From a virus, in IMG/VR virus record IMGVR_UViG_3300022659_000035: a DNA stretch of 33,431 nt; one strand, given 5' to 3'. Below the pieces are notes generated by a model that had not been told where the DNA came from, did no database searches, and saw only the letters and a list, made by a program, of their open reading frames with translations. A program made the position numbers and the translations under genes. The first letter of the stretch is position 1. Each line of letters begins with the position of its first letter. Below are positions 3,993 through 19,894 of this stretch, in pieces.

Positions 3993-4024
3993 GGCATAAC
4001 TCCTTGCCCGTTACTGTCCATAGT

Positions 4025-4032
4025 GGTAAAGC
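4025..4032 (-). promoter_or_regulatory. GCTTTACC motif, copy 1
   Basis: Minus strand reads GCTTTACCACTATGGACA. There are 32 nt between the motif and the tail-fibre ATG, and it lies directly after a hairpin. Confidence 0.5.
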
Positions 4033-4050
4033 AAAGCCCCCGAAGGGGCT
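4028..4050 (-). terminator. Intrinsic terminator-like hairpin between the internal-virion genes and the tail fibre
   Basis: Minus strand reads AGCCCC-TTCG-GGGGCT followed by TTGCTTTA. The tail is only moderately U-rich. Confidence 0.45.
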
Positions 4051-4126
4051 GGAAAGGGAAGATATGACTGAAGATCAGTTTTGGCGTGTAGCCATTACCG
4101 GAGCCTCAATCCCGATTTGGGCGCTC

Positions 4127-5821
4127 TTATTGCAGAAGGCCGAGTCCTATCTGGCTGCCAAACGGAGCGAAACGGGGCGCAGCCTCCTGAATCGCCTGGC
4201 CTATCGCCTGGGCACCTTGTGGTCTCGCGCTCGCAGACCAGCTAAGTAGGTTCTGCATGGGTGTCGTGTAAAGCCCAAGCCCCAAAGCGCCGCCAGCAGC
4301 AGTCCAAGGGCTAATCATTCCAGCAGCACCGGCACCCACAGCACCCAACGGGCCAAGTGTCGTCAGCAGGCGTCCAGCCGTTCCACTGTCAGGCACGCGG
4401 TTACCCAAAACAGATGTACCGGCACCCGCCAAATCCTGCATCAAAGCCGATCCACGCGCCGTCGCCCGGTCACGCACCGATCTATCGGCCTGACGCACGG
4501 CAGTCATCAACTGTCCAGGCGTGAACACACCGCCCGACCCCTTCGCACCAACCGCCGCGCCTTCGACTCGCACCAAGTTTGCAAAGGCAGAGTCTGCGGC
4601 ACGCATGGCTTTGGCGGCTTCTGGGTTGGCCCGCATGGCGTTCTCACGAATGATGCGCTGCACCTCTTTCAGAGCGTCACCAAGGTTTTGCTGGTAAGCG
4701 TCTGAACTGCCGCTGTAACGCGCAATGTCCTTGCCCAGCTTGCTGTCCAGTTCCTTGAATGCTTCGGCAGTTAGACCCTTTTTGGTCTGGATGTACTCGC
4801 TGAAATAGTTGTTGAAAATCTTGCGCTCTGTGCCTTCCAATCCCTTGGTGGCCATCATCTTCAGATTGTTCAACTCGTTGCGGGCAGGCTGGTCAATGCG
4901 GAAAGCACCCATTTGCTGCTTGGCCGCTTCGTAGGCATCAGAGACCACATCACCGGCACGGGCCACGCCCGCCGTTCCAATGTCGTCCACCTGTTGCCCC
5001 AGAGGCTTGGTCACGCGGTTGAGTGCCGCTTTGTTGAACTCCTCCACCGCCCTGCGCCGCTGGTCAGCCACCGCATCGCCAATGAACGGCACGCTGGCGA
5101 GGCGCTCCTCAAGGGTGTTGGCACGACCACCCAGCGTCTGGCCAATCGTTGGGCGCACACCTGCGTCACGCAACATCTTCACATCCGGGTTGACCGATGC
5201 GCGAGGACTCACCACGGATGCAATGCCACGGGCAACCACCGGACCGGCAGCGCCACCAATGGCACCAATCTTGACCTGCTGGGCCTTGCCTTCCGCAAAA
5301 TCCCCTTCCGTGACAGGCGCAAGAGCAGCCGAGGCAGCGCCACCCGCAGCCCCCAACGCAGCCTGACGGGTCAAGGACGAAGCCAAAGGCACCGCACGCG
5401 CCAGCGCCACGTTGGCAGGACTCACCACGTTTCCAATCATCCGGTATCCATCAATGCCAGACTCTCCGGCAGCGGCACGGCGATATTGGTACTCAGACTC
5501 ACGCTCTCGGACTTGCTGATCGACTCCGCCTTCAGGCAAGCGAGGCACCAGGCCAGTTTTGTCGGCCAGCCAGTTGTTGAACTCATTGCCAGCACGCACC
5601 ACGCCTTCCGGCAGGATTTTGGTCAGCAGTTGAGCGCCACCGTGAATGGGGTCCGCCATCCCGGTTGTGATCTTTTCGGTCCTTGTCAACGGTCCTTTGG
5701 ACGCGCCAAGGTTCGGCAGTGCCTCTTGGATCATTGCCTGCGCCTGCTCGGGCGTGGTGCCCTCCGGCACCTCAAAGCGTGCAATGCGTCCATCAGGCAT
5801 CTCAAAACGGGCAACAGGCAT
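4127..5821 (-). CDS. Large virion protein, probably an internal or ejection protein
   Basis: 564 aa, starting MPVARFEMPDGRIARFEVPEGTTPEQAQAMIQE. Ala/Gly-rich. TAAGGAG RBS. The role is inferred from its position in the structural module. Confidence 0.7.
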   Translation of the reverse strand: MPVARFEMPDGRIARFEVPEGTTPEQAQAMIQEALPNLGASKGPLTRTEKITTGMADPIHGGAQLLTKILPEGVVRAGNEFNNWLADKTGLVPRLPEGGVDQQVRERESEYQYRRAAAGESGIDGYRMIGNVVSPANVALARAVPLASSLTRQAALGAAGGAASAALAPVTEGDFAEGKAQQVKIGAIGGAAGPVVARGIASVVSPRASVNPDVKMLRDAGVRPTIGQTLGGRANTLEERLASVPFIGDAVADQRRRAVEEFNKAALNRVTKPLGQQVDDIGTAGVARAGDVVSDAYEAAKQQMGAFRIDQPARNELNNLKMMATKGLEGTERKIFNNYFSEYIQTKKGLTAEAFKELDSKLGKDIARYSGSSDAYQQNLGDALKEVQRIIRENAMRANPEAAKAMRAADSAFANLVRVEGAAVGAKGSGGVFTPGQLMTAVRQADRSVRDRATARGSALMQDLAGAGTSVLGNRVPDSGTAGRLLTTLGPLGAVGAGAAGMISPWTAAGGALGLGLYTTPMQNLLSWSASARPQGAQAIGQAIQEAAPRFAPFGSQIGLGLLQ

Positions 5822-5830
5822 ATCTGCTCC

Positions 5831-7138
5831 TTACTGCTCAAAGCCGAGGAAACGAGCGCCAGCCGCCTTTGGTGCGGAAGGTGCGTTCGGGTTGGCGCGC
5901 ATGACGCTGGATTGCGGGAAAAGCGGGTTCTGCGCCGACCAAGCGGACAGCATGTTGTAGAAGCCCTCATCAATCGAGCCATTCCTGGTGCGGTACTCAC
6001 GCGCCAACCGGGCCACGTCCTGGTCGCGCTGGGCCAGTTTGCGAGCCGTATCCAACATGAGTTTCCGACCTTGCGGCGTTGTTGTCAGGCCAGGGACCAT
6101 AGAAACCAGGAACTGACGGTCTGCGTCAGACATTGCACCAGGCATACCAGCACCGCCAGAGGGGTTGCGAAGCTCCAGAGCGATTTCGCCGGACAGTGCT
6201 TGCGCCGCCTCTTTGTTTGGCAGGCTTGGATCAATCTTGATACCAAGACTTTCGGCGGTTTTGGCAACCTCCACGCCAAACGGAGTGAATTTGCCGGTAC
6301 TGACGCCTTCCAACAAAGAACCCAGCCGGTCGTAACGATTGAGTTTGGAGGAGGCGTTCATTCCCGCCTTCTGAATGTCGGCATAAGAGCCGCCAAAGAA
6401 CTCGCCAACCGTTTTGGCTTCTGCGCCTTCCTGCTTGTTGATGACAGTTTGGCTGGAGGCTCCGGCACGTTTCAGTGCGGCTTGGTAGTCGAAGAACGAT
6501 CCCGTGAAGCCCTGAGACTGCGCCAATTGGTAGCCGCGAATCTCTGCCGGGGTAGCCTCTTTCTTTTCTGGACCCTGAGCAACCACCCGCCCTTGGCCGT
6601 CGTACCGAACCTGACCCTCGCCCAACGTAAAAGCCTCGGCCTCCTTGGGGAACAACTGGCGTTCCAGCATCTTGTCCGCAAACGGGCTGTCAGGGCTCAT
6701 CAAATGGGCCTGCAAGGCGTTCTGATCGGGTCCGTAGGAGATATTCAACGGGGTGCGCAGGTCGGCCAACTTCTGCACGCCAAAGTCGCCAAACTCGGCG
6801 TTCTCGGCTGCGATCTGGTTGGTCACTGCATCGGTGCCTTGCAGTTTGGGTTGCATCAGGGCGGGCAGTTGGGTGCGCCATGCTTGTTGGCGCTTCTGCT
6901 GTTCCGCTTGCTGACGGAGTTGATCCATCTGCAAGGCGCGGTATTCCTGCTGGAAGGCGTTGTCCTTGGCCTGTTGCTCACGCTCCATGGCATTGGAGTA
7001 CCCCAGCAGACCCGCAATCCCACCTCGACCGAGGCTATTTATAGGCTGACCGCGCCTCGCATTGGCAGCATAACCAAATATCCCAGAAAGCAGCCCTTGG
7101 CCCTCGGGAGTCTTTACAAAATCCAGCAAACCGTTCAT
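5831..7138 (-). CDS. Virion protein, probably an internal or ejection protein
   Basis: 435 aa with a Gly-rich hydrophobic N-terminus (MNGLLDFVKTPEGQGLLSGIFGY) and a Gln-rich coiled region. AAGGAG RBS. Confidence 0.7.
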   Translation of the reverse strand: MNGLLDFVKTPEGQGLLSGIFGYAANARRGQPINSLGRGGIAGLLGYSNAMEREQQAKDNAFQQEYRALQMDQLRQQAEQQKRQQAWRTQLPALMQPKLQGTDAVTNQIAAENAEFGDFGVQKLADLRTPLNISYGPDQNALQAHLMSPDSPFADKMLERQLFPKEAEAFTLGEGQVRYDGQGRVVAQGPEKKEATPAEIRGYQLAQSQGFTGSFFDYQAALKRAGASSQTVINKQEGAEAKTVGEFFGGSYADIQKAGMNASSKLNRYDRLGSLLEGVSTGKFTPFGVEVAKTAESLGIKIDPSLPNKEAAQALSGEIALELRNPSGGAGMPGAMSDADRQFLVSMVPGLTTTPQGRKLMLDTARKLAQRDQDVARLAREYRTRNGSIDEGFYNMLSAWSAQNPLFPQSSVMRANPNAPSAPKAAGARFLGFEQ

Positions 7139-7147
7139 AGCTACTCC

Positions 7148-7636
7148 TTACATCGTGCACCCAATGTGCACTTCTCTTTTCTTTGCAACATAGGCTGCGT
7201 GCGCTTCCTCTGGCGTTGCGTATGTGCCGACATAGATCATTTTTCTGTTCAGTTTGACCCGCGCCCTGAAGCTATTGCCCCGCCGAATCACGCCGAGATA
7301 GCCACACTGGTTGTCCTTTTGTGGGCCGGCACGGTTTTGTGCATTGATGGCTTGAGGAACATCTCTCAGGTTTGCAAGGCGGTTGTCTGTCGTCACATGG
7401 TTAATGTGATCCATGACGCCAAGCGGCCAATGTCCGTGAACCCACATCCAGATCAGGCGCTGGTTTTGATACAGCTTCCCATTCAATCTGGTAACCAAGT
7501 AGCCGTGGACATTGAGACACCCAACCACGGCACCTTTAGGGCCGCGCGACCCTCTGGTGACAAGTCGACTCAACTCTCCCGTTTCCGGGTTGTAGTCAAA
7601 CAACTTCCGCAGCAACTCTTGCGTGACCGGCTTCAT
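7148..7636 (-). mobile_element. Free-standing HNH homing endonuclease (HNH_3 plus AP2-like DNA-binding domain), copy 1
   Basis: 162 aa with HGYLVTRLNGKLYQNQRLIWMWVHG, DHINHVTTDNRLANLR and an AP2-like GYLGV..FRARV..YVGTYATPEEAHAAY. GC is clearly lower than in the flanking structural genes. Confidence 0.85.
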
Positions 7637-7639
7637 ATG

Positions 7640-7720
7640 TCACCCCAGCAGCCCACGGCGGGCCATGCGTTTCTGTTGCAGTTGCGCCACTTGCCCATTG
7701 CCAAGCAAACCTTGCATCAT
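7640..7720 (-). CDS. Possible 26-aa ORF between a virion gene and the HNH insertion
   Basis: MMQGLLGNGQVAQLQQKRMARRGLLG. ATGA overlap with the upstream stop, and its own stop lies 3 nt before the HNH ATG. It could be a remnant. Confidence 0.25.
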   Translation of the reverse strand: MMQGLLGNGQVAQLQQKRMARRGLLG

Positions 7721-8466
7721 CGCGCTCCCATTGCATAGCGGGCATATTCGCCCATTGATTGACGGCGTTTCATGTCCTCTTCAAACGTCCGGGCCATCTC
7801 TTGCTGGTTGCTGTTCAACACCCCACTCAGGTCCAGCGGTTGAGACTGGATCGGCATGGCAGGAGGGGGAGCCATTTCCGGCTCGGCCAAAAGTCCCTGC
7901 GCCAGCTTCGCGGTGCCCATTGCCTCGCCAACAGGCTTGACTGCGCTGTTGAAGCTCTTGAGTGTTTCCATTGCCCCGGTCATGCCAGGAAGCTGCGTGG
8001 CGTTGGCGTAGGTGCCCGTGATCGGGTTGAAGGCCGGGAGCGAGGTTGCCATGCCTTTGCCAGCGCCGCCCGCAAATCTTGCGAACGTGGCTTTGTCCAT
8101 TGCCGACTTCCACGGCGCTTCCGCAGCCTGGGAGAGCAATTTGTCGCCAGCCAAGCCGAAGCCCTCATTCTGAGCAGCCAACATTGCAGACTGTGACTGC
8201 GGGCCAAACGCCGCCGATTCAGGCAAGCCAAGCAGTGTTGCGGTTTGTCCGGCTGTCGTGGAGGCACCAGCAGCACCAGCAGCACCGGCAGAAGCACCAG
8301 AGGCTGCAGGAGCCGAACCCAGCAACCCACCGCCACCCGCCGCCAGCGTGCCCCCTGCTGCACCCAAGCCAGCACCCAGCAAAGCGCCTTTGAGTGGGTC
8401 TTTTTTGTTCGCCACAGCACCCAGACCCGCGCCAATCAAAAGAGGCATCAGCATGGGAAACATCAC
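7717..8466 (-). CDS. Gly/Ala-rich virion protein with an N-terminal hydrophobic segment
   Basis: 249 aa, beginning MMFPMLMPLLIGAGLGAVANKKDPLKGALLGAGLGAAGG. ATGA coupling to the upstream gene. Confidence 0.65.
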   Translation of the reverse strand: MMFPMLMPLLIGAGLGAVANKKDPLKGALLGAGLGAAGGTLAAGGGGLLGSAPAASGASAGAAGAAGASTTAGQTATLLGLPESAAFGPQSQSAMLAAQNEGFGLAGDKLLSQAAEAPWKSAMDKATFARFAGGAGKGMATSLPAFNPITGTYANATQLPGMTGAMETLKSFNSAVKPVGEAMGTAKLAQGLLAEPEMAPPPAMPIQSQPLDLSGVLNSNQQEMARTFEEDMKRRQSMGEYARYAMGAR

Positions 8467-8801
8467 TTGACTCCTTTGGTCGATGTGGCCACGGGAGCCG
8501 CCTGCATCATCGGCGTGGCCGGTTGCTGCCAGGGCACGAAAGAACTTTGCTGGGCAGGCATCTGGCCCGACTGCTTGAACGCCTGGAACTGCGCCAGAGG
8601 ACTCAGCGAGTTGTCAGTAGCAGGCGCGCGGGTATATCGAGGATTGATGAACTGCGCCGGGTCCACGCCTTGAACGGGGATGGACTGGAAAGGGTTGTTC
8701 TGCTTGAAGTAGGCGTCAAGGTCTGCCGCTGTGAGTGGTTGCGCCTCCTTACGAGTAAGGCCAAATTTCTCGGCCAAAAATGGGCTTTTAAAAATCGCCA
8801 T
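8463..8801 (-). CDS. Hypothetical structural-module protein
   Basis: I take the internal ATG at 8801 as the start (MAIFKSPFLAEKFGL), with a GGAGGT RBS 7 nt upstream and 1 nt after the upstream stop. The longer ORF-track start at 8864 overlaps the upstream gene. Confidence 0.65.
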   Translation of the reverse strand: MAIFKSPFLAEKFGLTRKEAQPLTAADLDAYFKQNNPFQSIPVQGVDPAQFINPRYTRAPATDNSLSPLAQFQAFKQSGQMPAQQSSFVPWQQPATPMMQAAPVATSTKGVK

Positions 8802-8802
8802 T

Positions 8803-9564
8803 TCACTTACCTCCGCCACTGGTCGTCGTCGTTGAACCCTGCGCCTGACCCACCACACCGCCAATCGTCTGGAGTTTCTTGTAGGGGTTGTTCTGCGCGT
8901 CTTGGTACTGCTGGTAGCCGAAATCGAGGTTGTTCTGGACTTGCTGTTGTTGCAGGTTCCCGGCGTTCAGCAGTTGGCCCGCGTCTTGGTAGGCCGCATT
9001 GCCGAATGTCGGTGCCATGCCAATCGCCTGCATCCGGTTCGCTTGGTCGGTGTTGTAGGCGTTGCCGTACATTTGGGTCGCCACGTCCGTCAATCCGGCT
9101 GCGTACTGTTGCTGAAGCCCGGAGTTACCAAAGGAGCCGGAGTTCACCGCCGCAGTGTTGAAGTTGGACTTCACCGAATCCTGCGCCTTCTGCACCATCT
9201 GGTCGAGGTACGGATTCGTGTTACCCCCCTGAATGAACTGGTTCAGGTTGGCCTCGGCGTTGTTCATGGTCTGCGAACCATTCAGTGCCCGGTCTTGGAT
9301 CATTCCAATCCCGAGGTTCTGGGTCGAGTTCAGGTCCGCAAACCGTTGCCCCGAATACGCCTGCCACGGGGTGGAGGCGAGTTGCTGCGCTTGCTGGGTG
9401 TACAGGTTGGCCAGAGGGCGAAGCTCAGGCGCGATTTGTGGCGTTGTGGTGGATGTGCCCCCTCCCCCGCCCCCACCGCCGTAGATCCGGCCAAAGGGTT
9501 TCTCCTGGGTGGCGCTGTCGCCTAGCGGCTCACCCATTGCATATAGTTCACGCCGACTGGTCAT
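8803..9564 (-). CDS. Gln/Asn/Gly-rich virion protein
   Basis: I take the start at 9564 (MTSRRELYAMGEPLG), an ATGA overlap with the upstream stop. I reject the 390-aa track ORF extension because it overlaps 9561..9968 in another frame. Confidence 0.65.
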   Translation of the reverse strand: MTSRRELYAMGEPLGDSATQEKPFGRIYGGGGGGGGTSTTTPQIAPELRPLANLYTQQAQQLASTPWQAYSGQRFADLNSTQNLGIGMIQDRALNGSQTMNNAEANLNQFIQGGNTNPYLDQMVQKAQDSVKSNFNTAAVNSGSFGNSGLQQQYAAGLTDVATQMYGNAYNTDQANRMQAIGMAPTFGNAAYQDAGQLLNAGNLQQQQVQNNLDFGYQQYQDAQNNPYKKLQTIGGVVGQAQGSTTTTSGGGK

Positions 9565-9968
9565 GCTTCCACCTCCAAAATCGAGTACACGGGCTGGAAC
9601 CCGCAAGTCATCCGGTACAAACGCTCCTGGGCTTTCCCTGCCGCACAGCGGACCCTGGAACACCCCAGCGTGCGGGCCATCTCCTTGATCGCCCCGAAAA
9701 AGTCCTGAAACCTGCCGTGATGCGCCACCAAGTCGGTGACGAACAAGACTCTCAGGTTGGGCAGTTGATCCACCCTCACCACCCCCCAGCCACGCACACC
9801 GTCCTCGGCATCCATGCGGATCAGGGTGCGCTCCCCACGGGAGAGGATCATCTTCAGTTGGTCCCCCGTAATCTCCCCGCCCGAGGTGTCGCAGGCTTCG
9901 GCAAGGCAGGAAGCCCCTTCCTTCCAGGCGAGGTCGATGTGGGAGGCGGGAATGGGGGTAAGGGTCAT
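9561..9968 (-). CDS. Hypothetical protein, possibly with a GNAT-like fold
   Basis: I take the start at 9968 (MTLTPIPASHIDLAWKEG), an ATGA overlap with the upstream gene. The function is not securely recognised. Confidence 0.6.
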   Translation of the reverse strand: MTLTPIPASHIDLAWKEGASCLAEACDTSGGEITGDQLKMILSRGERTLIRMDAEDGVRGWGVVRVDQLPNLRVLFVTDLVAHHGRFQDFFGAIKEMARTLGCSRVRCAAGKAQERLYRMTCGFQPVYSILEVEA

Positions 9969-10258
9969 CAGGCACCTGTCAAGTACCGACATTCCACCCA
10001 TGTGCCGGGTGTGCCACCGATCACGCATTTCCAGCCGTCGATGACATACTTTGACCCAGCAGTGCCCAACTCGGTGGGCGTGTTGTTGGCTACAAAGTCA
10101 CCCTGTGCATAGGTGCCTGTCGTTGGTGCAGATGATGCGGATTGGTAAAGCGCAACCGCCCTGCCCTCTGACAGTCCGTTGATCTGGTTCGCCACCTCGC
10201 GCATCCACTGCGCGGTTTCGGCGTCCACGTTCTTTCTGGGGGTTTTGCTGATCCTCAT
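9968..10258 (-). CDS. Small conserved structural-module protein
   Basis: 96 aa ending GDFVANNTPTELGTAGSKYVIDGWKCVIGGTPGTWVECRYLTGA. ATGA overlap at its start. Confidence 0.65.
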   Translation of the reverse strand: MRISKTPRKNVDAETAQWMREVANQINGLSEGRAVALYQSASSAPTTGTYAQGDFVANNTPTELGTAGSKYVIDGWKCVIGGTPGTWVECRYLTGA

Positions 10259-12301: not shown

Positions 12302-12615
12302 CGCTTCAGGTAGGCGTCAAAGGTAACGAAAGCAGGGTTCTGCACCAGATACTCTTTGAGTTTCTTCTTGCGCTCGTTCTGGTCGGGGATGGCCAGCAGC
12401 TCGGCATAGATGTGCATGGGAATGGTGCCCACATGCCGCATCTCGCCCCAGCGCTCGCCTGCCGTGGCGTTGCGCTTGGCCTTGGCAAACTCCAGAATCG
12501 GCTCCACATCCTGCGAGGTGTGCTTCACCACCTCGTCACCCTGGTAGATCAGGCGGGTATGGACACCGTACTGGTCTGTGCCCTCGTCAAGTGTGAAAGA
12601 TTCAACAGGTGTCAT
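12298..12615 (-). CDS. Hypothetical protein downstream of the major capsid gene
   Basis: ATG at 12615 with an AAGGAG RBS 7 nt upstream. I do not favour the track start (GTG at 12633). Confidence 0.65.
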   Translation of the reverse strand: MTPVESFTLDEGTDQYGVHTRLIYQGDEVVKHTSQDVEPILEFAKAKRNATAGERWGEMRHVGTIPMHIYAELLAIPDQNERKKKLKEYLVQNPAFVTFDAYLKR

Positions 12616-12647
12616 AGATACGCTCCTTGACACCTAATGTCTACATC

Positions 12648-12655
12648 GGTAAAGC
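12648..12655 (-). promoter_or_regulatory. GCTTTACC motif, copy 2
   Basis: Minus strand reads GCTTTACCGATGTAGACA. There are 32 nt between the motif and the ATG at 12615, and it lies directly after the post-capsid terminator. Confidence 0.5.
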
Positions 12656-12658
12656 ACG

Positions 12659-12680
12659 AAAAAGGGGGCCGAAGCCCCCT
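12659..12680 (-). terminator. Intrinsic terminator after the major capsid gene
   Basis: Minus strand reads A-GGGGGC-TTCG-GCCCCC-T followed by TTTTT. GC-rich stem with a UUCG tetraloop. Confidence 0.75.
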
Positions 12681-12712
12681 CTCTGTATCAACCTCCCTAG
12701 AGGTCAGTCAAC

Positions 12713-13693
12713 TCATCCGCCGCTCAGATCGCTGATCTTGCCAAATGCCTTGGGCGCACGAACAGCCAAGGCACAGTCAACGGTCACGAGGACGCGCTCG
12801 CTGTCACCAGACTTGCCGAGTTCTTCGGTACGGAAACCGTCGAGGTAGGCAACGTCTGCGTAGTTCGTGTTAAGCAGATGAACGTCGGTGGCACCAGCCA
12901 TCAGATAGTGAGGCACGATCTCAAGCTCGCCAAAGTCGCTCATGTAAACGTCCGCGCCGCCGATGATGCGACCCTGCTCCTTCTTGGAGACTTGGTAGCG
13001 GTTCACAGCGATACCGGCAAAGCCCGAGAACACGCCCTTGTGGTTGGGCGACATGATGACCATGCGGGGCACTTCGCCAGAGGCGATGTAGGCCGACTGC
13101 ACAACGGTCTTGAGCAGGGTTTCAGAGAAGGCACGCAACGTTCCGCTCAACGTCGGCGCCGTGGTCGGTGCGCCAGAAGTCCAAGAGGCGGTAGATCCGT
13201 TCGGTGTGCCGGTACCGTGCGATGTGTTGGCGTAGTTCTGCACACCCAGACCACCCATCTTGCCAGCCACGGAAGTGGTGGGAGCGACAGCGGCGTTGTT
13301 GGACACGATGGCGGCTTCAATGTCGCGCTTCAGTTCCAGCATGGCCTTGGCCTTGATGTAGGCCATTTCAGAGCCACGACCGGCTTTCTTCACGATGTTG
13401 GCGCGGCGGGACACACCGGGCTTCTTTGCGAAGATTTGCATGTAGTTGCCCACACGCTCGGTTGCGGTCTGTGCGTCCAGCGTCACGTCGTCGCCGTCGA
13501 TCTGCGCGTTGTCCTTGTTGGCGGTAGCCAAGGAATCGCGCTGCCATTCGTGGTACGTATTGGTCGCAGTCACGCGGCCAATGGCACTCAGCACCGGGGT
13601 TTCGGTCGGGCTGGTGTTGTAGATTTTGTCGGTCAAGTCCTCGCGGTCACCGCGCAGGGAGGCTTTCTGGTACAGGTTGGTTGGCACAGCCAT
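12713..13693 (-). CDS. Major capsid protein (HK97 fold, SU10/DUF5309-like)
   Basis: 326 aa containing LRGDREDLTDKIYNTSPTETPVLSAIGRVTATNTYHEWQRDSL. It is followed by a strong terminator and preceded by the scaffold gene. Confidence 0.85.
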   Translation of the reverse strand: MAVPTNLYQKASLRGDREDLTDKIYNTSPTETPVLSAIGRVTATNTYHEWQRDSLATANKDNAQIDGDDVTLDAQTATERVGNYMQIFAKKPGVSRRANIVKKAGRGSEMAYIKAKAMLELKRDIEAAIVSNNAAVAPTTSVAGKMGGLGVQNYANTSHGTGTPNGSTASWTSGAPTTAPTLSGTLRAFSETLLKTVVQSAYIASGEVPRMVIMSPNHKGVFSGFAGIAVNRYQVSKKEQGRIIGGADVYMSDFGELEIVPHYLMAGATDVHLLNTNYADVAYLDGFRTEELGKSGDSERVLVTVDCALAVRAPKAFGKISDLSGG

Positions 13694-13739
13694 TTCAATA
13701 CTCCTTCAATTGGTCAACGTAGGTAGGCTGCAAGGTCGT

Positions 13740-14681
13740 TCAACTTGGCGCGTCCACCCTGGAAGCGTTTTCAAGTTGCACATCCCTGCGTTTCTGCGGT
13801 GTCGGGTTGTTCTTGCTGGGCAGCTTCGGGGCCTCGCTCACCTTCTTCTGAACGGCAGGTTTCTGCTCTTTCAGTTGGCGGTAAGCCAGGGCATCCAACA
13901 TCACGCGCACCTGACGGTGATCCAGCACCTGCCCGAGTTCCTCTTGGGTGAACCCGTAGGTCTTGGAAACGTCCTGGTACGCCTTCGCCAGCCGGTCGCG
14001 GTCGATCCCGTCTTTCTGAAGCTCTGCCCAGCTACGCTGGAACATCTCAGCCCGTGCCTGTTGGATCTGCTGCTGATTGCGCTGCTCGATGGCCTGTCGC
14101 TCAGTGGCAATCTGCTGATCCAGTTGGCTCAAGACGCTGTAAATCGACTGTTGACGCTGGTTCTCTGCGACCCATGCAGCCGGATCGGTCTGGGCCAATT
14201 GCGCCATCTCTTCCGGGCTGCGCAGTCCTGCAAGCTGAACGATGGCGGCCCGACTGGCTTCCGCTTTCGTCAGATACTCTTGCGCGAACTCGTCATGTTT
14301 TGCCTTCAGGATTTCGACCGCCTGATGCTCCCGCTGTGCCAGCTCCTGGGTCTTGCGGGTGTAATCCGCTTGACGTTGGTAGCCCTTCACAAGCTCGGAT
14401 TCATCGACTTCGATCTCCTGCTCTGTGCCGTCCTCACCTTTGACAGTGACTTTCAGTTTCCGGTCGGGTGCAGGCGTATCTTCGGCATCTTCGTCGTCGG
14501 ACTCTTCGTCATCAGACTCTTCCTGTCCGTCCGTTTCCTCATCGTCCGTGTCGATCTCGTCGGTGGACTCTTCGGTGTCGGCCTCCAGTTCCTCTTGCTC
14601 GGATTCCGCGTCGGGAGTGTCCGAAAGGAAGGAAGCCAGGTCGCTCAAGGAATCGGGTGCGTTTTCAGCGTGTCCGTCCAT
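13740..14681 (-). CDS. Scaffolding protein
   Basis: 313 aa with an extremely acidic N-terminal 70 aa (runs of D/E), then helical coiled-coil sequence. It lies between the portal and capsid genes. Confidence 0.7.
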   Translation of the reverse strand: MDGHAENAPDSLSDLASFLSDTPDAESEQEELEADTEESTDEIDTDDEETDGQEESDDEESDDEDAEDTPAPDRKLKVTVKGEDGTEQEIEVDESELVKGYQRQADYTRKTQELAQREHQAVEILKAKHDEFAQEYLTKAEASRAAIVQLAGLRSPEEMAQLAQTDPAAWVAENQRQQSIYSVLSQLDQQIATERQAIEQRNQQQIQQARAEMFQRSWAELQKDGIDRDRLAKAYQDVSKTYGFTQEELGQVLDHRQVRVMLDALAYRQLKEQKPAVQKKVSEAPKLPSKNNPTPQKRRDVQLENASRVDAPS

Positions 14682-14703
14682 ATCGCTTTCTCTCTAGGTC
14701 TTT

Positions 14704-14711
14704 GCTTTACC
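14704..14711 (+). promoter_or_regulatory. GCTTTACC motif, the single copy in inverted orientation
   Basis: Plus strand reads TTTGCTTTACCCTCAAG, in the gap between 14775..15071 and the scaffold gene. Confidence 0.35.
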
Positions 14712-14774
14712 CTCAAGTCACCAGGGTTAGGCGCGGCGCATCTCTGCGGACGCAAAAAGGCGGGTGATCGCCGG

Positions 14775-15071
14775 TTAAGCCACTTTCCTCAAGAACCGCT
14801 TGGCAAGGGATTCATTGCGCTCACGGTCCAGATCAATCCTGTGTTGAGCCAGCTTGCCGGTTTCGATCATCCCTTGCAGGATCGACTCGAACTTGTCGGT
14901 GAGCTTGGCCAACTGCAACAGAAGCAACTGACCTTCACGGTCACGCACTGGGCAGTCTTTCCACTGCTGAATCACCACGGATTTCAGTTGGCTCATGGCC
15001 TCCTGATACGCCGGGTTGTCCAGCACCAAGGCTGCTTCCGTGGCTCGTTGAACGGTCTGTTGCTCAGTCAT
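14775..15071 (-). CDS. Hypothetical protein between portal and scaffold
   Basis: ATG at 15071 (MTEQQTVQRATEAALVLDNPAYQEAM). The track start at 15086 is a GTG. Confidence 0.6.
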   Translation of the reverse strand: MTEQQTVQRATEAALVLDNPAYQEAMSQLKSVVIQQWKDCPVRDREGQLLLLQLAKLTDKFESILQGMIETGKLAQHRIDLDRERNESLAKRFLRKVA

Positions 15072-15089
15072 GGAATCAGTTTGCACAGA

Positions 15090-15097
15090 GGTAAAGC
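15090..15097 (-). promoter_or_regulatory. GCTTTACC motif, copy 3
   Basis: Minus strand reads TGAGTGCTTTACCTCTGTGCAAA. It lies just after the portal stop and 18 nt before the ATG at 15071. Confidence 0.45.
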
Positions 15098-15099
15098 AC

Positions 15100-17196
15100 T
15101 CAGATGCCCAGGCCGTTTTGCATCTCAGCTTGCAGGCCAGAAAGGTTCATCTGCTGCGCTGTCTGTTGTCTCATCTGCTCGATGTAAATCTGCGTCTGCG
15201 CCATGTATTCCACCTTCCAGCGTTCAAACTCGATCTTCTGCGCCTCGAGTTGGGCATCCATTTGCGCCTTCATCTGCTCGCGCTCGGCGTCCCGCTGGTC
15301 GTTGGCGGCTTGGAGTTCCAAGGTGGCGCGGGTTTCTTCCAACTTGGCCTGAAGCTCGATCTGGCGTTTCTGCTGGTCTGCCTGCATCTGTGCCTGGAAC
15401 TTCTGTTGGTCGGCTTGCAGCTTCATTTGCTCGATCTGGATCGGCAACGGCGGCTGCTGTGGTTGAGGCGGCAGGGTGGTCGGGTCCACCGCGAAGCTCT
15501 GCACATCCTTGAAGCCCGCGTTCTCGATCAATTTGCTGAACGAGTGATACAGATGCTTCGGCTGCACCATGCCCAGCGCCATGCCCTTTTCTTGAAGCTG
15601 CATGATCTGCATCAGCGCCGCAGCCTGGGCCATCTTGTCGCCCGTGCCCAGACCCACATGGATGGTCATGTCGTACTGGTCCCGCCACTCGTTCGGGTCG
15701 TACTCCACGAACTCGTCGCGCAGGCGGAAGGCCAGCTTCTCAATACCCCCATCCGTCAGGGTCTTCAGAATCCCCTGGAAGATGGGTTTGACCAGGATCT
15801 CGGCGAAGATGCGGGCGACCAGTTCAATGCGCTGCTGGGCTGCGCTCTGGTCGATCTGACGACCCGTGGCCGTGTTGTTCAGGCTGTCCGGGTTCAGGCC
15901 CATGGAGGTGCGAGACACCCCGGTACGGTTTTCGCGCATCCCCTGGACGTACTCCAGCATCGGCAGGGACGCACCAGCCGCGAACGGGATCACATCGGAC
16001 TGGATGGCATTGGGATCGCGTGCCCGGATGATGCCGCCCGGACGGGAATCCAGCAGGTCGTCAATGTTCGCCAGCGGGGACCAGTTGGAATCCGTCAGCA
16101 CCTTGGTGCGGGGGTTGTTGGTCAGGTAGAGGTTGTTGAGCGTCTGACGCAGCAGTTCGGTGTGCAGCTTCTGGAGATCAGACACCGCCTCGGCCATGCT
16201 CATGCCTGCCCACTGGTGGGTGTTCAGGATGGGAGAGGCCGTGGCAATGGGTACGTGCGAGACTTCCTCGATCTTGAGGATCTTGTCTTGCAGGCGGTAC
16301 ACACACAGACGTTCCGCAATGCCGTCGCCGTCGCGGTCCACCAGCACGAACTCGATGCGCAGGTAGCCATCAGCCTGGGAGGTGTCCAGATCCTCCGTCA
16401 TGGCGTCGTAGGCGGTTTCCTCCACCTCGCGCTGCATCAGGTTGCGATCGGAGGCTTCCAGGTCTTCCTCGTCCACATCGAAACCCATCAGCTTCAAGTC
16501 GGACAAAGTAACTTCCATCACCCGGCAGACGTAGGGGCAGTCTTGCAGCAGAGGGGAAGTCCACTCGGCATCCACCAACAGGTCGTTGGGGTCGAACGCC
16601 TCAACCTTGACGATGTTGCGCTTCTCGATCCGTTTCAGCCGCCCGGTGTGGATGTTCATCACCTGGCCGGTCATCTGGTCCACCACCTGCTCAGTGCGGA
16701 CCTCCTGAATCTCTGCGCCATCCTCTTGAAGCATCAGGGCCAGCATCTCGTCCGTAGCACCCTGGAACGGGATGGAGATGACGCTTTCCTTGGCTTCCTT
16801 GCGCCACATCACCGCACTGTTGCCCGTGATGAGTGCGTCCTTGAAGGCGGTGTACAGGATCAGAAAGCCGTTGTTCTGCTTGTAGAACACGTAGTTGCAG
16901 GCGTCCGTGGCCTGCTCTGCGCCCTTCACATCGTTGGCCCGTGAAGGCTCGAACGACACCGCCTTGTCCGTGCTGGTGAAAATCTTCAGCAGAGCGGGCA
17001 AGACCCATTCCACCGTGTCGGACACATCGGAGGCGACGATCTGCGACCAATCCTCCTGCTCGTTGCCGTAGGGCAGCTTGTAGTATTCCCGGCGCGACTG
17101 CTCACGGGTCGTGGCCAGTTCACCCCAGACGTACTTGGCTGAAGCCTCTTCCTTGTCCTGAAGGGCGCGCAGGAGGTCGTCGTCCTGCATCTTCAT
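15100..17196 (-). CDS. Portal protein
   Basis: 698 aa containing REYYKLPYGNEQEDWSQIVASDVSDTVEWVLPALLKIFTS, with a Gln-rich C-terminal coil. It lies downstream of terminase. Confidence 0.85.
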   Translation of the reverse strand: MKMQDDDLLRALQDKEEASAKYVWGELATTREQSRREYYKLPYGNEQEDWSQIVASDVSDTVEWVLPALLKIFTSTDKAVSFEPSRANDVKGAEQATDACNYVFYKQNNGFLILYTAFKDALITGNSAVMWRKEAKESVISIPFQGATDEMLALMLQEDGAEIQEVRTEQVVDQMTGQVMNIHTGRLKRIEKRNIVKVEAFDPNDLLVDAEWTSPLLQDCPYVCRVMEVTLSDLKLMGFDVDEEDLEASDRNLMQREVEETAYDAMTEDLDTSQADGYLRIEFVLVDRDGDGIAERLCVYRLQDKILKIEEVSHVPIATASPILNTHQWAGMSMAEAVSDLQKLHTELLRQTLNNLYLTNNPRTKVLTDSNWSPLANIDDLLDSRPGGIIRARDPNAIQSDVIPFAAGASLPMLEYVQGMRENRTGVSRTSMGLNPDSLNNTATGRQIDQSAAQQRIELVARIFAEILVKPIFQGILKTLTDGGIEKLAFRLRDEFVEYDPNEWRDQYDMTIHVGLGTGDKMAQAAALMQIMQLQEKGMALGMVQPKHLYHSFSKLIENAGFKDVQSFAVDPTTLPPQPQQPPLPIQIEQMKLQADQQKFQAQMQADQQKRQIELQAKLEETRATLELQAANDQRDAEREQMKAQMDAQLEAQKIEFERWKVEYMAQTQIYIEQMRQQTAQQMNLSGLQAEMQNGLGI

Positions 17197-17339
17197 TCGG
17201 CCACCTTGCGCTTGGTGACTTTGGGAGCCGGTTCCTCCTGCTTGAGCAGCGGGAACAGCACTTCGGCCAGCTTGTCGGCTGCGTCACGGCGTCCCTGGCA
17301 AACCAGTCGGATGAGGTCTTGTAGCTCTTGCTGTGTCAT
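17193..17339 (-). CDS. Small 48-aa ORF coupled to the portal gene (not in the ORF track)
   Basis: My own translation is MTQQELQDLIRLVCQGRRDAADKLAEVLFPLLKQEEPAPKVTKRKVAE. AGGAGT RBS. Its stop overlaps the portal ATG (ATGA). Confidence 0.5.
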   Translation of the reverse strand: MTQQELQDLIRLVCQGRRDAADKLAEVLFPLLKQEEPAPKVTKRKVAE

Positions 17340-17887
17340 GTGGATACTCCTGCTGGCAGTCTATGTAGTGGTAAAGCGCAACCAGGACCCCCAAAACCCG
17401 GCACCATTTTCTTAGATGCCTCGATATAAGCTAAATGCGCCTCATAAGCTGAGTCAAATGAGCCTAGGTAGTGGTACTTACTGTTAACTTTTATGGATGC
17501 CCGGTATTTCTTTGCCCTTCTGCTCCACGACACGCCTTTGTAGCCACTTGTATTCCTTGAAGAAAGGCCGGTGTTATGAAGGTTTTCGGAGTTGGAGCAA
17601 TCCCTCAAATTACTGATTCTGTTGTCTGTTTTGTCTCCATTGATATGGTCAATGTAGCCATTTGGGAACGAACCATGCACATACAACCATGCCAGCCTGT
17701 GCGCCAGACAATAAAAGCCAGCGAACCTGATGTATAGATATCCTTTGCCTCCTATGCTGCCAGTTTCTTTCCAAAGAAACTCTTGATTGACCTTTGCGGT
17801 CTTTATTTTTCTGAACAACCCGGTTTCTGGGTCGTAGTGCAAATGTTCTTTGAGTAAGTCTTGAGTGATAAGATCGGTCTTAGCCAT
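17336..17887 (-). mobile_element. Free-standing HNH homing endonuclease (HNH_3 plus AP2-like domain), copy 2
   Basis: 183 aa with GYLYIRFAGFYCLAHRLAWLYVHG, DHINGDKTDNRISNLR and GYKGVSW..YRASIKV..HYLGSFDSAYEAHLAY. It is the most AT-rich segment of the window. AAGGAG RBS. It sits between terL and portal. Confidence 0.85.
17370..17377 (-). promoter_or_regulatory. GCTTTACC motif, copy 4
   Basis: Minus strand reads GGTTGCGCTTTACCACTACATAGACT, with 30 nt between the motif and the ATG at 17339. The 14-mer GGTTGCGCTTTACC recurs at 10144-10157. Confidence 0.5.
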
Positions 17888-17965
17888 GATGACTCCTTCT
17901 CAGTCGGATTGGTTAGAGCCTCCAGTCCACGCCAATGCACTGGGGGCTCGTTTATTTTGTTTGCG

Positions 17966-17973
17966 GGTAAAGC
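17966..17973 (-). promoter_or_regulatory. GCTTTACC motif, copy 5
   Basis: Minus strand reads TGACCGCTTTACCCGCAAACAAA, immediately after the terL stop and upstream of HNH copy 2. Confidence 0.45.
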
Positions 17974-17975
17974 GG

Positions 17976-19304
17976 TCATGCCACAAACCCCTTGGAGCGG
18001 TACTTGATCGGTGCAACCCGTGGGTCGCTCTGGCCCACAGACTCAAAGACCACGCACAGCAAACCAAAGCTGTCTGCCCCGTGCGATGACCAGTCATGCT
18101 CCGGCCCTAAGCCGATGTTGCGGACCTCATCACGCTTTTCGTGATACCAGCCCAAAGCCTCCAGCCCAGCGGCGCAGCCTTCCTCGTCCATGTAGATGGA
18201 TGGCCACACCCTTTGCGCCGACTTGATGCGACCCATTGCCGCGCCCTTGCCTTGGTTGGGCACCACCTCCACCGCATAGCCAGCAGCCTCAAACGCCTTG
18301 CGGTAGGACACATCGAATACGGCGTCTTGCTTGTCCCCGTCATGGGGTAGCCAGATGGTGGTGTTGGCCCCGTTGTAGCCGTTTTCTCGCAGCCATGTCA
18401 TGTGCGCCGAAGCTGGCTGGCCAACTGCCTCGTAATACTTCAGCACCCGAGGCTCCCGCCCAACGAACTGAGCGACCCATATGGTGAAGGCGTCTGCCTT
18501 TTGACCCGTGCCGCCCAAGTCGCAAAACGCTTTGTACGTCAGTAGTTCATCCGGTCCGACCCGGCCTATCCTGCGCTCTTCCCTGGCTCTGACAATGGCC
18601 TTGGCGTAATACGCACCCTTCACCGTGCCGATGTAGTCGCCTTCCCAGATGTGGTCGTACTGCTCCGGGTTCTCTTCCTTGTCCCTCAGACGGTCGCGCT
18701 CCAGCTTGGCCGGAAACCTGGGGTTATCTCGCCAGTTGCACTGCACCACCTTAATCAAGGGATCGTTGGAGAACCTGAACCGCCGATCTACCGGAGCCGT
18801 CCTCCTTTTCGGGTTCCATGTCACCCACAGTTCAGCGTTCCAGTTCTCACCCTCTTCCCGCAGCGTGGGGATCAGGGTCTGCCATGCATCGTCGGTCACC
18901 GGCTCGGCTTCATCCACCCAGCAGATAAGGATGCGCCCCTTGGACTTGATGGAGGCAATGTTTCTGTCCAGACCTGCGAAGGCAAACCAGATGCGGCCAT
19001 CCTTGGACTTGATGTACCTGTCCCCTACGTCGTAGTAGCTGGACAGCACAGGGTCATCCTGAATGGCTCGCTTGCATTCCTCCAGACTGGAGTCGTCCAG
19101 GGAGTTCATGAACTGACGGGCGCACAGGAGTTGTCCAGTCACTCCGCCCAAGCCAAATGCCATCCCGTAGGCGGCAATCATGGTAGCGAAAGATCGAGTC
19201 TTGCCAGATCCCCGACCACCGTATGCGCCCCTTACGTCTGCTGGCTTGCCATCAAAGACTTCCAGCAGCTTGGGGACAATCGCTATCTGATGAGTCCCAC
19301 TCAT
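17976..19304 (-). CDS. terL: Terminase large subunit
   Basis: 442 aa with Walker A GGRGSGKT, Walker B-like ILICWVDEAE, and a C-terminal nuclease region. It is coupled to the upstream small ORF. Confidence 0.9.
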   Translation of the reverse strand: MSGTHQIAIVPKLLEVFDGKPADVRGAYGGRGSGKTRSFATMIAAYGMAFGLGGVTGQLLCARQFMNSLDDSSLEECKRAIQDDPVLSSYYDVGDRYIKSKDGRIWFAFAGLDRNIASIKSKGRILICWVDEAEPVTDDAWQTLIPTLREEGENWNAELWVTWNPKRRTAPVDRRFRFSNDPLIKVVQCNWRDNPRFPAKLERDRLRDKEENPEQYDHIWEGDYIGTVKGAYYAKAIVRAREERRIGRVGPDELLTYKAFCDLGGTGQKADAFTIWVAQFVGREPRVLKYYEAVGQPASAHMTWLRENGYNGANTTIWLPHDGDKQDAVFDVSYRKAFEAAGYAVEVVPNQGKGAAMGRIKSAQRVWPSIYMDEEGCAAGLEALGWYHEKRDEVRNIGLGPEHDWSSHGADSFGLLCVVFESVGQSDPRVAPIKYRSKGFVA

Positions 19305-19543
19305 TTCAGCGGGACGATCTCAAGGCGGGTGATGGACTGGATCGGCTGTTCCTCATCTCCAACGTGTTGAATCGTCTGAAGTTTTGGAACTGACCTATCT
19401 AGGAGCGAGTTGATCGCTTGAACCTGTACCGGCGTCAATTCAACCTTCCCCATCGCACAGTTGTGCAGGCGAGTGATAAGCGCCGAGGCTTGGATTTTTG
19501 CTCTGACTTGCTCAGAGTGCATTCGGTTTAAACGTGCTGCCAT
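19301..19543 (-). CDS. terS: Putative terminase small subunit
   Basis: 80 aa (MAARLNRMHSEQVRAKIQASALITRLHNCAMGKVELTPVQVQAINSLLDRSVPKL). ATGA overlap with terL. The call rests on position and a remembered pattern only. Confidence 0.5.
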   Translation of the reverse strand: MAARLNRMHSEQVRAKIQASALITRLHNCAMGKVELTPVQVQAINSLLDRSVPKLQTIQHVGDEEQPIQSITRLEIVPLK

Positions 19544-19552
19544 AACGAGTCC

Positions 19553-19894
19553 TTACGGGTGTTCGTTGCTCTTATTGTCGGAAGTAGTAAAGCAGGGTAG
19601 ATCCGTCCTGATGATCTTCACATCGAAGATGAAACTGACGCCCTTGAGTTCATCATTGATTGGCTCAGTCCACTCCCCTGGCAGGTGGTACACATGGCGA
19701 CCCAACTTGTCTCGCTTGCAGGAAATCACGCCAGTGCGCGACAGGTTATGGATGGCCGACCGAACCCTCCCGTATCTTAGTCCAGTGGCCTTGACCACAT
19801 CCTTCAAGGTTCTACTGCCGCTCTCAATCGCACTGAGTACGGTACGCATGGTGGACGGCTTTTCCAGTGGCAGGGGACGTCCTTTGCGTATCAT
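19553..19894 (-). CDS. Winged-helix (MarR/ArsR-like) DNA-binding protein
   Basis: I take the start at 19894 (MIRKGRPLPLEKPSTMRTVLSAIESGSRTLKDVVKATGLRYGRVRSAIHNLSRTGVISCKRD), an ATGA overlap. I reject the longer track ORF. Confidence 0.6.
   Translation of the reverse strand: MIRKGRPLPLEKPSTMRTVLSAIESGSRTLKDVVKATGLRYGRVRSAIHNLSRTGVISCKRDKLGRHVYHLPGEWTEPINDELKGVSFIFDVKIIRTDLPCFTTSDNKSNEHP
19586..19593 (-). promoter_or_regulatory. GCTTTACC motif, variant copy 6 (GCTTTACT)
   Basis: Minus strand reads CTGCTTTACTACTTCCGACA, inside the 3' end of 19553..19894. There are 42 nt between the motif and the terS ATG. Confidence 0.35.

Follow-up and report, generated by a model that had tools for sequence, protein, structure and literature searches.

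A winged-helix protein as candidate activator of predicted -35-less late promoters in a temperate podovirus genome

Phage late promoters that lack a -35 element and depend on an activator are, as a general kind, already known. In this work we analysed a 33,431-bp virus sequence (IMG/VR record IMGVR_UViG_3300022659_000035; the whole stretch is called the window below), in which an 8-mer, GCTTTACC, recurs in front of packaging and morphogenesis genes, and in which a 113-amino-acid (aa) protein of predicted winged-helix fold is encoded directly upstream of the putative small terminase gene, terS. A first-pass annotation of this DNA had proposed that the motif might be a late-activator site or a promoter of non-standard specificity, a suggestion that comparative evidence strongly supports. 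Our reading, to which we give a probability of a little under 0.8, is that the window carries seven -35-less late promoters, one of them an uncertain internal site, that would be activated by the winged-helix protein together with the host RNA polymerase. Judged by sequence comparison, the protein belongs to an undescribed family.

The closest described architecture is that of phage P1, whose late promoters need the host protein SspA. In the P1 RefSeq record a '-22 region' stands next to the -10 at the two late promoters that we inspected, and lpa lies directly before LPpac and pacA. P1 has 11 dispersed late promoters, each with a conserved short element that is the site of the Lpa activator, and this upstream element is described as a 9-bp inverted repeat (PMC10695390). 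The window resembles P1 in that several late promoters without a -35 would combine a -10 with an upstream element (near -22 in P1, an 8-mer at a predicted -26 to -19 here), and in that the order activator gene, late promoter, packaging genes has its counterpart in the winged-helix gene, promoter 1 and terS/terL (terL, large terminase). However, the P1 element is an inverted repeat, while GCTTTACC and its variants are asymmetric and kept in one orientation (116 copies versus 8, see below). Alignment of the winged-helix family profile with P1 Lpa by hhalign gave no homology (probability 0.1%). To our knowledge, natural specificity classes with a residue–base code have not been described for Lpa.

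T4 MotA is also a phage protein that reads an upstream box in place of the -35 while sigma-70 keeps the -10, the arrangement proposed here. MotA boxes have their centre near -30, at 12 +/- 1 bp from the -10, and the MotA DNA-binding domain is a 'double wing', whereas the window protein is predicted to be a plain winged helix. The core of the box, as quoted in PMC9004378, is TGCTTtA, which resembles the GCTTTA of our motif; here, however, the A of GCTTTA is 8 bp from the hexamer (99 of 107 sites), and the MotA box lies about 4 bp further upstream. Pfam and PHROG scans of about 40 open reading frames (ORFs) of the window, with a few short ORFs outside these family scans, detected no MotA or AsiA relatives.

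In T7, T3 and SP6 the promoter sequence co-varies with a few residues of the polymerase that reads it. The window shares with this group a phage-specific promoter repeated before structural modules, punctuation by terminators, related head genes, and co-variation of promoter and proposed reader across related phages. It differs in that the block downstream of the 8-mer looks like a sigma-70-type -10, that the bases around the predicted start are not conserved, and that neither the scanned window ORFs nor seven large ORFs of relatives showed a phage RNA polymerase or sigma domain. Among bacterial activators, the winged-helix domain of PhoB sits next to the -10 and takes the place of the -35, and activators of the MerR family bind within the spacer. 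PhoB/OmpR and MerR proteins, however, are dimers or tandem dimers on repeats, respond to signals and have extra domains, whereas a single domain and an asymmetric site are found here; homology to them was compared by Pfam scan only, which gave sub-threshold generic winged-helix matches.

According to PMC3152322, small activator genes directly upstream of terS (RinA, ArpU, LtrC) control the late operon of temperate phages of Gram-positive hosts, a gene position shared by the winged-helix gene, but RinA is described there as acting at one promoter before terS, compared with 4–8 promoters per genome here. The family scans gave no match of the 113-aa protein to RinA, ArpU or LtrC, and no Q-family match between NinB and terS. 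Lambda Q differs further in that it serves a single late promoter with both a -35 and a -10, and with a Q-binding element, whereas none of our seven sites has a -35.

Placement and anatomy of the predicted promoters

The exact 8-mer occurs seven times in the window, six times on the minus strand (4025, 10144, 12648, 15090, 17370 and 17966) and once on the plus strand (14704), and a variant, GCTTTACT, is found at 19586-19593; the recurrence described in the first-pass annotation is therefore borne out at every coordinate, variant included. Dinucleotide-preserving shuffles contain 0.56 copies on average and none of 100 reaches seven, while a third-order Markov model expects 0.66 minus-strand copies where six are observed. 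The enrichment over shuffled sequence that had been proposed as a check is thus present, but the count alone is not significant after correction over all 65,536 8-mers. Since GCTTTACC is no outlier among 8-mers after multiple testing, plain k-mer enrichment was dropped as the main argument. It is placement and extension, rather than enrichment, that make the motif real.

A weight matrix built from relatives only finds exactly seven window sites scoring 15–24, all on the minus strand, from 19593 to 4025 (Table 1), and no strong site in the early region. The only other match of at least 9 is a weak one on the plus strand (9.8, 8465-8472), and shuffled sequence gives about 2.5 such matches per strand. 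At each of the seven, motif position 16 is A and position 20 is T. Our comparison set consisted of 89 loci (L numbers below) fetched around portal homologues, which with the window makes 90 sources. Many of these loci carry several GCTTTACC copies on the portal strand and almost none on the other; when each locus is searched with the 8-mer of its own class (classes are described below), 34 loci together have 116 copies on the coding strand and 8 on the other. The proposed check of positional conservation also came out in favour of the motif, as in every class the promoters are found after the winged-helix gene, after terL, before the gene for a 98-aa protein and after the capsid gene.

Individual sites follow the same pattern. 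The position of promoter 1, directly after the winged-helix gene, is occupied in L004, L007, L009, L012, L022, L046, L051, L055, L076, L092, L093 and L094, that of promoter 2 also in L003, that of promoter 5 after the capsid gene in all classes, and a homologue of promoter 3, from which the 48-aa ORF (ATG 17339) and the portal gene would be transcribed, precedes the portal gene in every promoter class examined. Six sites are well placed. The seventh, at 10144, is internal to a gene and of uncertain status: only L002 and L017 share it, with the 8-mer coding for ALYQ there, and six other winged-helix-positive relatives lack it at the corresponding codons. We rejected it as a conserved internal promoter on this account; it may be a lineage-specific internal promoter or a coincidence. 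The 14-mer GGTTGCGCTTTACC noted earlier is indeed present at both of its places, but only two sites have this upstream extension in common; upstream of the motif, the profile of relatives' sites is almost devoid of information.

This profile, made from 66 non-redundant sites of relatives, has the consensus C-GCTTTACC-A-c-T-t-T-g-G-A-c-A-A-T, with A at position 16 in 58, A at position 18 in 54 and T at position 20 in 58 of the 66. The critical bases of the sigma-70 -10 hexamer are -11A and -7T, and because the second block, GACAAT, shows A at -11 and T at -7 we read it as a sigma-70-type -10 hexamer at -12 to -7. A hexamer NANNNT follows the 8-mer in 104 of 107 non-redundant sites, 6 nucleotides (nt) away in 99 and 7 nt away in 5; L022 has the 7-bp spacing throughout, with hexamers TAnnAT. 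The extension originally given as N4-6-T(A/G)GAC(A/T) had thus caught a downstream block that exists, but it is better described as N6 followed by NANNNT. The linker is A/T-patterned (A at -18, T at -16, T at -14), the 66-site profile shows no conservation from -6 to +1, and in relatives the gene in front often ends, with its stop codon, 2 nt upstream of the motif.

No -35 is apparent: alignment positions -9 to -4, the place expected for one, carry at most 0.2 bit each (66 sites), and a consensus promoter scan found no TTGACA-like -35 promoter at the window sites. The misfit to a normal -35/-10 pair that had been pointed out holds in so far as the 8-mer is no -35, but the 'TAGACA' extension itself appears to be a sigma-70-type -10 at a normal distance from the start. 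The 8-mer as a -35 was ruled out, no -10 being found 16–18 bp downstream, and the consensus sequences for sigma-54, sigma-28, sigma-E and boxA do not fit the sites.

The position of the transcription start is suggested by the 98-aa gene that follows the portal gene. Its ATG (15071) starts 6 nt after the hexamer, the distance at which a sigma-70-type start would be expected, and has no Shine-Dalgarno sequence. Counted strictly (8-mer ending in TACC, N6-7, NANNNT, N5-8, in-frame ATG), the same leaderless arrangement is present in 22 of 23 winged-helix-positive relatives, the exception having a very distant winged-helix homologue, and in 0 of 11 winged-helix-negative loci, each of which has at least 9 kb of upstream sequence. 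The mRNA of the 98-aa gene is therefore predicted to be leaderless, which would place the start at motif position 27 and the 8-mer at -26 to -19. Start codons lie at variable distances from the 8-mer (18–78 nt) and the 8-mer-to-hexamer distance is fixed. Three of the motif-to-ATG gaps are 32, 32 and 30 nt, as first described, and the others are 18, 42 and 78 nt. The predicted leaders would be 12–14 nt long for the fibre gene, the 105-aa gene and the 48-aa/portal unit, 24 nt for terS and 60 nt for the HNH gene. Both terminator hairpins that had been placed in front of motif copies were confirmed by folding and by their U-run. In relatives of the GCTTTACC class, the predicted leader of the portal gene contains, immediately upstream of the Shine-Dalgarno sequence, a small inverted repeat that is conserved, CGCTGTGATAGCG (L040 3619-3650; same place in L045, L047, L051, L055, L059, L060 and L082).

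The inverted copy at 14704, noted earlier, is incidental. It has no hexamer, it is not conserved in L002, L003, L004 and L017, and it is absent from 95%-identical relatives. Its sequence is explained as the 3' arm of hairpin 3, plus the following bases, of a structured RNA that occupies 14706-14772 (minus strand), in the leader separating the 98-aa gene from the start codon of the scaffold gene (ATG 14681). This RNA is conserved in 38 aligned relatives, including some without the promoter system (alignment A4; there were 46 distinct upstream sequences). It forms three hairpins, and loops 1 and 3 are complementary, as in kissing loops. Of the alignment cells, 92.9% are paired, and compensatory double changes occur in 21 of the 25 pairs; covariation scores 0.554, against 0.246 for shuffles (0 of 500 reach the observed score) and at most 0.147 for slid registers. 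No Rfam family matches it, even at E<=1. The scaffolding protein of P22, gp8, autoregulates its synthesis via a translational operator, and by analogy the scaffold-leader RNA could be a translational operator for scaffold autoregulation. Another near-copy of the motif lies within the CI-type repressor gene, where a 16-bp perfect palindrome, GGGTAAAGGTTTACCC (25317-25332), contains GGTTTACC followed after 6 nt by GATCAT, antisense to the repressor gene; it could be a chance occurrence, an operator or a weak antisense late promoter.

A winged-helix protein that covaries with the motif

When the presence or absence of every window protein was tabulated over the loci, the 113-aa ORF stood out, and an iterated hidden Markov model finds a homologue in 33 of the 90 sources, which are the motif-bearing ones. 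This strict co-occurrence, and the covariation of residues and bases described below, support the 113-aa protein as the reader of the motif. It was one of two candidate readers named at the outset; the other, the 175-aa protein (20097-20624), turned out to be an HNH homing-type endonuclease that is patchy among motif-bearing relatives.

In the AlphaFold2 model of the 113-aa protein the mean predicted local distance difference test (pLDDT) value is 81, and 91–97 over residues 11–70. Modelled helices at 15–25, 30–37 and 41–54 and a beta-hairpin wing at 58–70 give it a predicted winged helix-turn-helix (HTH) fold. The top Foldseek matches are the MarR-type winged helices BpsR, MepR and SlyA, with template modelling (TM) scores of about 0.5 over 63–70 columns, and matches among viral structures are generic HTH proteins. 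The MarR dimerisation helices are missing from the model. No Pfam or PHROG family covers the protein, which gives only sub-threshold TrmB, MarR and ArsR matches (best, TrmB, 19.1 bits versus a cut-off of 25.6; MarR_2, 12.8 versus 27). A single-sequence search of a protein word index returned 2 matches, and profile searches 55 and 137: the former are 55 clusters in an index of 5.8 billion proteins, all unnamed or 'hypothetical', the latter 137 representatives from an exhaustive profile search, 63 of them at E<=1e-10. Family members are single-domain proteins of about 95–113 aa. None of the 50,697 deposited phage genomes searched yielded a homologue, and a literature search, which left most subscription journals outside, found no paper on this motif or protein family.

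Two further possibilities concerning this gene region were rejected. A small terminase identity for the 113-aa protein is opposed by the 4–8 dispersed sites per genome, each tied to a -10 hexamer, where a small terminase would have a single pac-type site near terS and a gene coupled to terL; moreover, the terS position is taken by a separate 80-aa ORF (19301-19543), which overlaps the start of terL. In the 202-nt 'gap' upstream of the winged-helix gene there is a 66–69-aa ORF (19891-20100, minus strand) whose stop overlaps the winged-helix start (ATGA); although translationally coupled, it is no obligatory partner, since only 16 loci have it, three of them lacking the winged-helix protein. The winged-helix protein ends in a C-terminal tail, FTTSDNKSNEHP, whose codons lie in the terS promoter and leader (19553-19600, minus strand), so that the gene overlaps the first promoter proposed as its target; the tail is conserved in L002 and L007.

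At the same places relatives carry other 8-mers, CCTTTACC, TCTTTACC, CGTCTACC, CTTCTACC and TCATTACC, while the linker and -10 are constant across 8-mer classes, as expected if these are read by a conserved host component. The class follows two residues, 45 and 49 (numbering of the window protein, R45 and H49), which are one helical turn apart on helix 41–54 of the model. All 18 loci with R or K at residue 45 have GCTTTACC, and 8 loci with Q, N or S have CCTTTACC; T45 goes with TCTTTACC (L006, and L007 with one TC and one GC site), D45 with R49 goes with CGTCTACC (L013, L025), and A45 with A49 goes with TCATTACC (L036). One R45 locus, L021, was left out of this classification, as it is short and has one G-first and one T-first site. 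A basic residue 45 is thus associated with G at base 1, and a basic residue 49 with C at base 4 (G on the other strand); Arg/Lys–guanine contacts are the commonest protein–DNA readout. In a neighbour-joining tree made without columns 45 and 49 the G and C classes are interleaved, which indicates that the residue–base association arose several times.

Proteins found out of sample behaved in the same way. P0015 and P0048 (both R45) have GCTTTACC eight and four times, respectively, and P0019 (K45) has G at position 1 in three of four sites, so all three new R/K proteins had G-first promoters, as predicted; P0031 (E45, K49) revealed a new class, CTTCTACC, present three times. These associations suggest a code in which R/K goes with G, Q/N/S with C, T with T, D+R with CGTC, E+K with CTTC and A+A with TCAT. 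Starting conversely from the motif, a scan of IMG/VR showed that every fragment with at least two sites and the protein has R45, encoded on the same strand as the sites. The scan also gave many single-site loci, about half of which are expected by chance (a rough estimate for 16 specified bases). Some 30 single-copy matches to GCTTTACCANTNNNGACAAT (20-mer scan, among L095-L183) come from one metagenome (3300045988), on contigs of 24–62 kb whose fetched stretch lacks a winged-helix homologue; either chance or an unrelated conserved sequence may account for them.

Proposed activation and competing explanations

In the mechanism that we propose, the host RNA polymerase holoenzyme containing sigma-70 would read the -10, and the 113-aa protein would bind the 8-mer at -26 to -19 as an oriented monomer, with residue 45 contacting position 1, residue 49 positions 3–4, and the wing probably lying over the A/T-patterned linker. 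The bound protein would recruit or position the polymerase and so replace the contact between the -35 and sigma region 4. The winged-helix gene ends the early rightward operon (cro, replication genes, NinB, ..., winged-helix gene), so that accumulation of its product could switch on the packaging, head, tail and fibre modules, and terminators after the capsid gene and before the fibre gene would split the late region into units. The use of sigma-70, activation rather than repression, and monomeric binding are what we infer from the comparative evidence.

Several points weigh against this proposal. The covariation counts come from metagenomic contigs, many of which are mutually related. The identity of the sigma factor is assumed, and the hexamer favours G at -12 and C at -10, unlike the canonical TATAAT. 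The predicted transcription start derives from the start codon of one gene family, and the three leaders predicted to be 12–14 nt long would start almost at the Shine-Dalgarno sequence. Site 10144 is within coding sequence and is missing from most relatives. Finally, -26 to -19 is promoter spacer, where repressors also bind, and for this genome a polymerase or sigma gene may lie beyond the 33.4-kb window.

The winged-helix protein could instead be a repressor or timer that occludes constitutive -10-only promoters from the spacer. The interval between the place of a -35 and the -10, where the 8-mer lies, is a common operator position, and most small winged-helix proteins of the MarR type, which gave the best structural matches, are repressors. 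Such promoters, however, would be weak unaided, having no -35 and an imperfect -10. We favour activation because the -35 is missing and because orientation and 6-bp spacing are fixed (99 of 107 sites), as fits a stereospecific polymerase contact and as an operator does not need; and also because the model has no dimerisation elements (the MarR dimerisation helices are missing) and the gene stands at the end of the early operon, before the late genes, the usual place of a late activator (compare P1 lpa before LPpac and pacA). We consider repression unlikely.

Equally unlikely, in our opinion, is that the 20-bp element is the promoter of a phage RNA polymerase or sigma factor encoded outside the window, the winged helix being accessory or unrelated. 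The structural module is of T7/SU10 podovirus type and the window is probably incomplete. Moreover, terminator–promoter punctuation and a promoter before the fibre gene are features of T7 class III organisation, which the late region recalls. Promoters of single-subunit polymerases, however, are most conserved from -6 to +1, where no conservation is seen, whereas A-11, T-7 and a distance of 6–7 nt to the start are features of the sigma-70 family; scans of window ORFs and of large ORFs of relatives gave no polymerase or sigma domain, and it is residues of the winged-helix protein that covary with the 8-mer.

We regard it as very improbable that the motif is the junction of a mobile cassette, such as a homing-endonuclease target or a recombination joint, rather than a transcription signal. 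The window has three HNH genes, the HNH-AP2 insert is flanked by the copies at 17966 and 17370, and inserts in L010, L012, L022 and L076 are flanked likewise, but most copies adjoin no insert, and a junction leaves unexplained the -10 hexamer, the fixed distance to the start codon and the covariation with a DNA-binding protein that is no endonuclease. A simpler account of the flanking copies is insertion next to a promoter, with a second promoter brought along or copied, which would keep both genes expressed. Least probable of all is the RNA-level signal that had also been envisaged (RNA processing, ribosome standby or boxA-like antitermination in a long late transcript). In its favour are the strict strand specificity of the motif, the two copies behind terminator hairpins and a weak resemblance to the rrn boxA, TGCTCTTTAACAA. 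Against it, the predicted transcription start coincides with the start codon of the post-portal gene, so that the motif lies upstream of that leaderless mRNA, the distance to the ATG varies (18–78 nt) where that to the -10-like hexamer is fixed, and the residues that covary with specificity lie in the recognition helix of a winged helix, a fold that binds DNA.

Activation of -35-less promoters by the winged-helix protein thus provides a testable model of late-gene control for widespread temperate podoviruses of Comamonadaceae and related hosts, involving a regulator family that is nameless in every library searched. The model also accounts for a conserved head gene without a ribosome-binding site by a predicted leaderless mRNA. 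More speculatively, and with odds that we put somewhat below even, a monomeric winged helix of about 100 aa could be a portable stand-in for sigma region 4, with at least six distinct activator–promoter pairs whose specificity would come largely from residues 45 and 49; if true, this would be a new activation mode with a readable recognition code. If confirmed, the natural series of matched proteins and promoters would amount to small orthogonal transcription switches using the host polymerase, comparable in use to sets of T7-family polymerases or extracytoplasmic function (ECF) sigma factors and much smaller.

Gene layout and neighbouring features

The window has a G+C content of 60%, and its minus strand carries nearly all genes from about 25 kb down to 1 (Table 1). 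Judging from the genes recognised, the layout is of the temperate podovirus type, and the window is probably an incomplete phage genome. Its structural genes are related to the T7/SU10 podovirus group; the head module of relatives bears the precomputed Pfam labels SU10_portal, SU10_MCP and SU10_adaptor. No close deposited phage was found, a megablast search with 10 kb giving one 141-bp match, in terL, and the best matches to cultured phage portals have 27–37% identity. The hosts of relatives (prophages or contigs) are Rhodoferax, Hydrogenophaga, Acidovorax and other Comamonadaceae.

Table 1. Predicted late promoters, terminators and genes of the window
Feature	Position	Strand	Sequence or context	Score or basis
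CI-type repressor	25081-25836	+	opposite cro-like regulator	family scans
cro-like regulator		-	first of minus-strand gene order	family scans
Replication initiator	23167-23997	-		family scans
DnaB-like helicase	21831-22937	-		family scans
NinB	20884-21324	-		family scans
HNH endonuclease, 175 aa	20097-20624	-		family scans
Gene for 113-aa winged-helix protein (predicted fold)	19553..19894	-	directly upstream of putative terS; last codons overlap promoter 1	
Predicted late promoter 1	19574..19593	-	GCTTTACT-N6-GACAAT; upstream of putative terS (ATG 19543), predicted start ~19567	22.0
80-aa ORF in terS position	19301-19543	-	overlaps terL start	
terL	17976-19304	-		family scans
Predicted late promoter 2	17954..17973	-	GCTTTACC-N6-CAAAAT; after terL stop, upstream of HNH-AP2 (ATG 17887)	15.1, weakest
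HNH-AP2 endonuclease	17336-17887	-	ATG 17887; inserted gene, directly after terL	
Predicted late promoter 3	17358..17377	-	GCTTTACC-N6-TAGACT; within 3' end of HNH gene	21.9
48-aa ORF		-	between HNH-AP2 gene and portal; ATG 17339	
Portal	15100-17196	-		family scans
Predicted late promoter 4	15078..15097	-	GCTTTACC-N6-CAAACT; ATG 15071 of 98-aa gene, predicted leaderless	
98-aa ORF		-	directly after portal; ATG 15071	
Inverted GCTTTACC copy	14704..14711	+	no -10-like hexamer; outside promoter system	<9
Scaffold	13740-14681	-	ATG 14681	
Major capsid	12713-13693	-		
Intrinsic terminator	12663..12680	-	after major capsid gene, directly before promoter 5; then U-run	-20.1 kcal/mol, z -4.45
Predicted late promoter 5	12636..12655	-	GCTTTACC-N6-GACATT; after capsid terminator, upstream of 105-aa gene (ATG 12615)	22.1
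Virion and ejection proteins		-	downstream of major capsid	
Possible internal promoter 6	10132..10151	-	GCTTTACC-N6-CATCAT; inside 96-aa ORF, 115 nt before ATG 10028	23.3
Third HNH	7148-7636	-		
Intrinsic terminator	4035..4050	-	directly before promoter 7; UUCG loop, U-rich tail	terminator scan; -11.8 kcal/mol
Predicted late promoter 7	4013..4032	-	GCTTTACC-N6-GACAGT; after terminator, upstream of tail-fibre gene (ATG 3992)	23.7
Tail fibre	2988-3992	-	ATG 3992	
Endolysin	1326-1802	-		

Two of the three HNH genes of the window, all on the minus strand, are of the HNH-AP2 type, and the one between terL and portal is flanked by predicted promoter copies (17966 and 17370). The terL–portal and capsid–105-aa junctions of relatives (L010, L012, L022, L076, L092 and L094) likewise hold inserted HNH genes or morons, with a promoter copy before and after each, an arrangement that points to insertion at promoters with duplication of the promoter. 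L008 (7408-9768) and L010 (1926-4352) each have an intein in the large terminase gene, seen as Terminase_3 and Intein_splicing domains.

Two observations concern other parts of the window. The 7-mer GGAATAC has 8 copies on the coding strand and 0 on the opposite strand, with 0.86 expected, all within coding sequence (minus strand; 17556, 17089, 15211, 12143, 10642, 6947, 2700 and 166). Within the early-operon ORF 23994-24308, the stretch 24217-24284 (minus strand) matches the Rfam int-alpA RNA with 39.4 bits, compared with a gathering score of 35.8.

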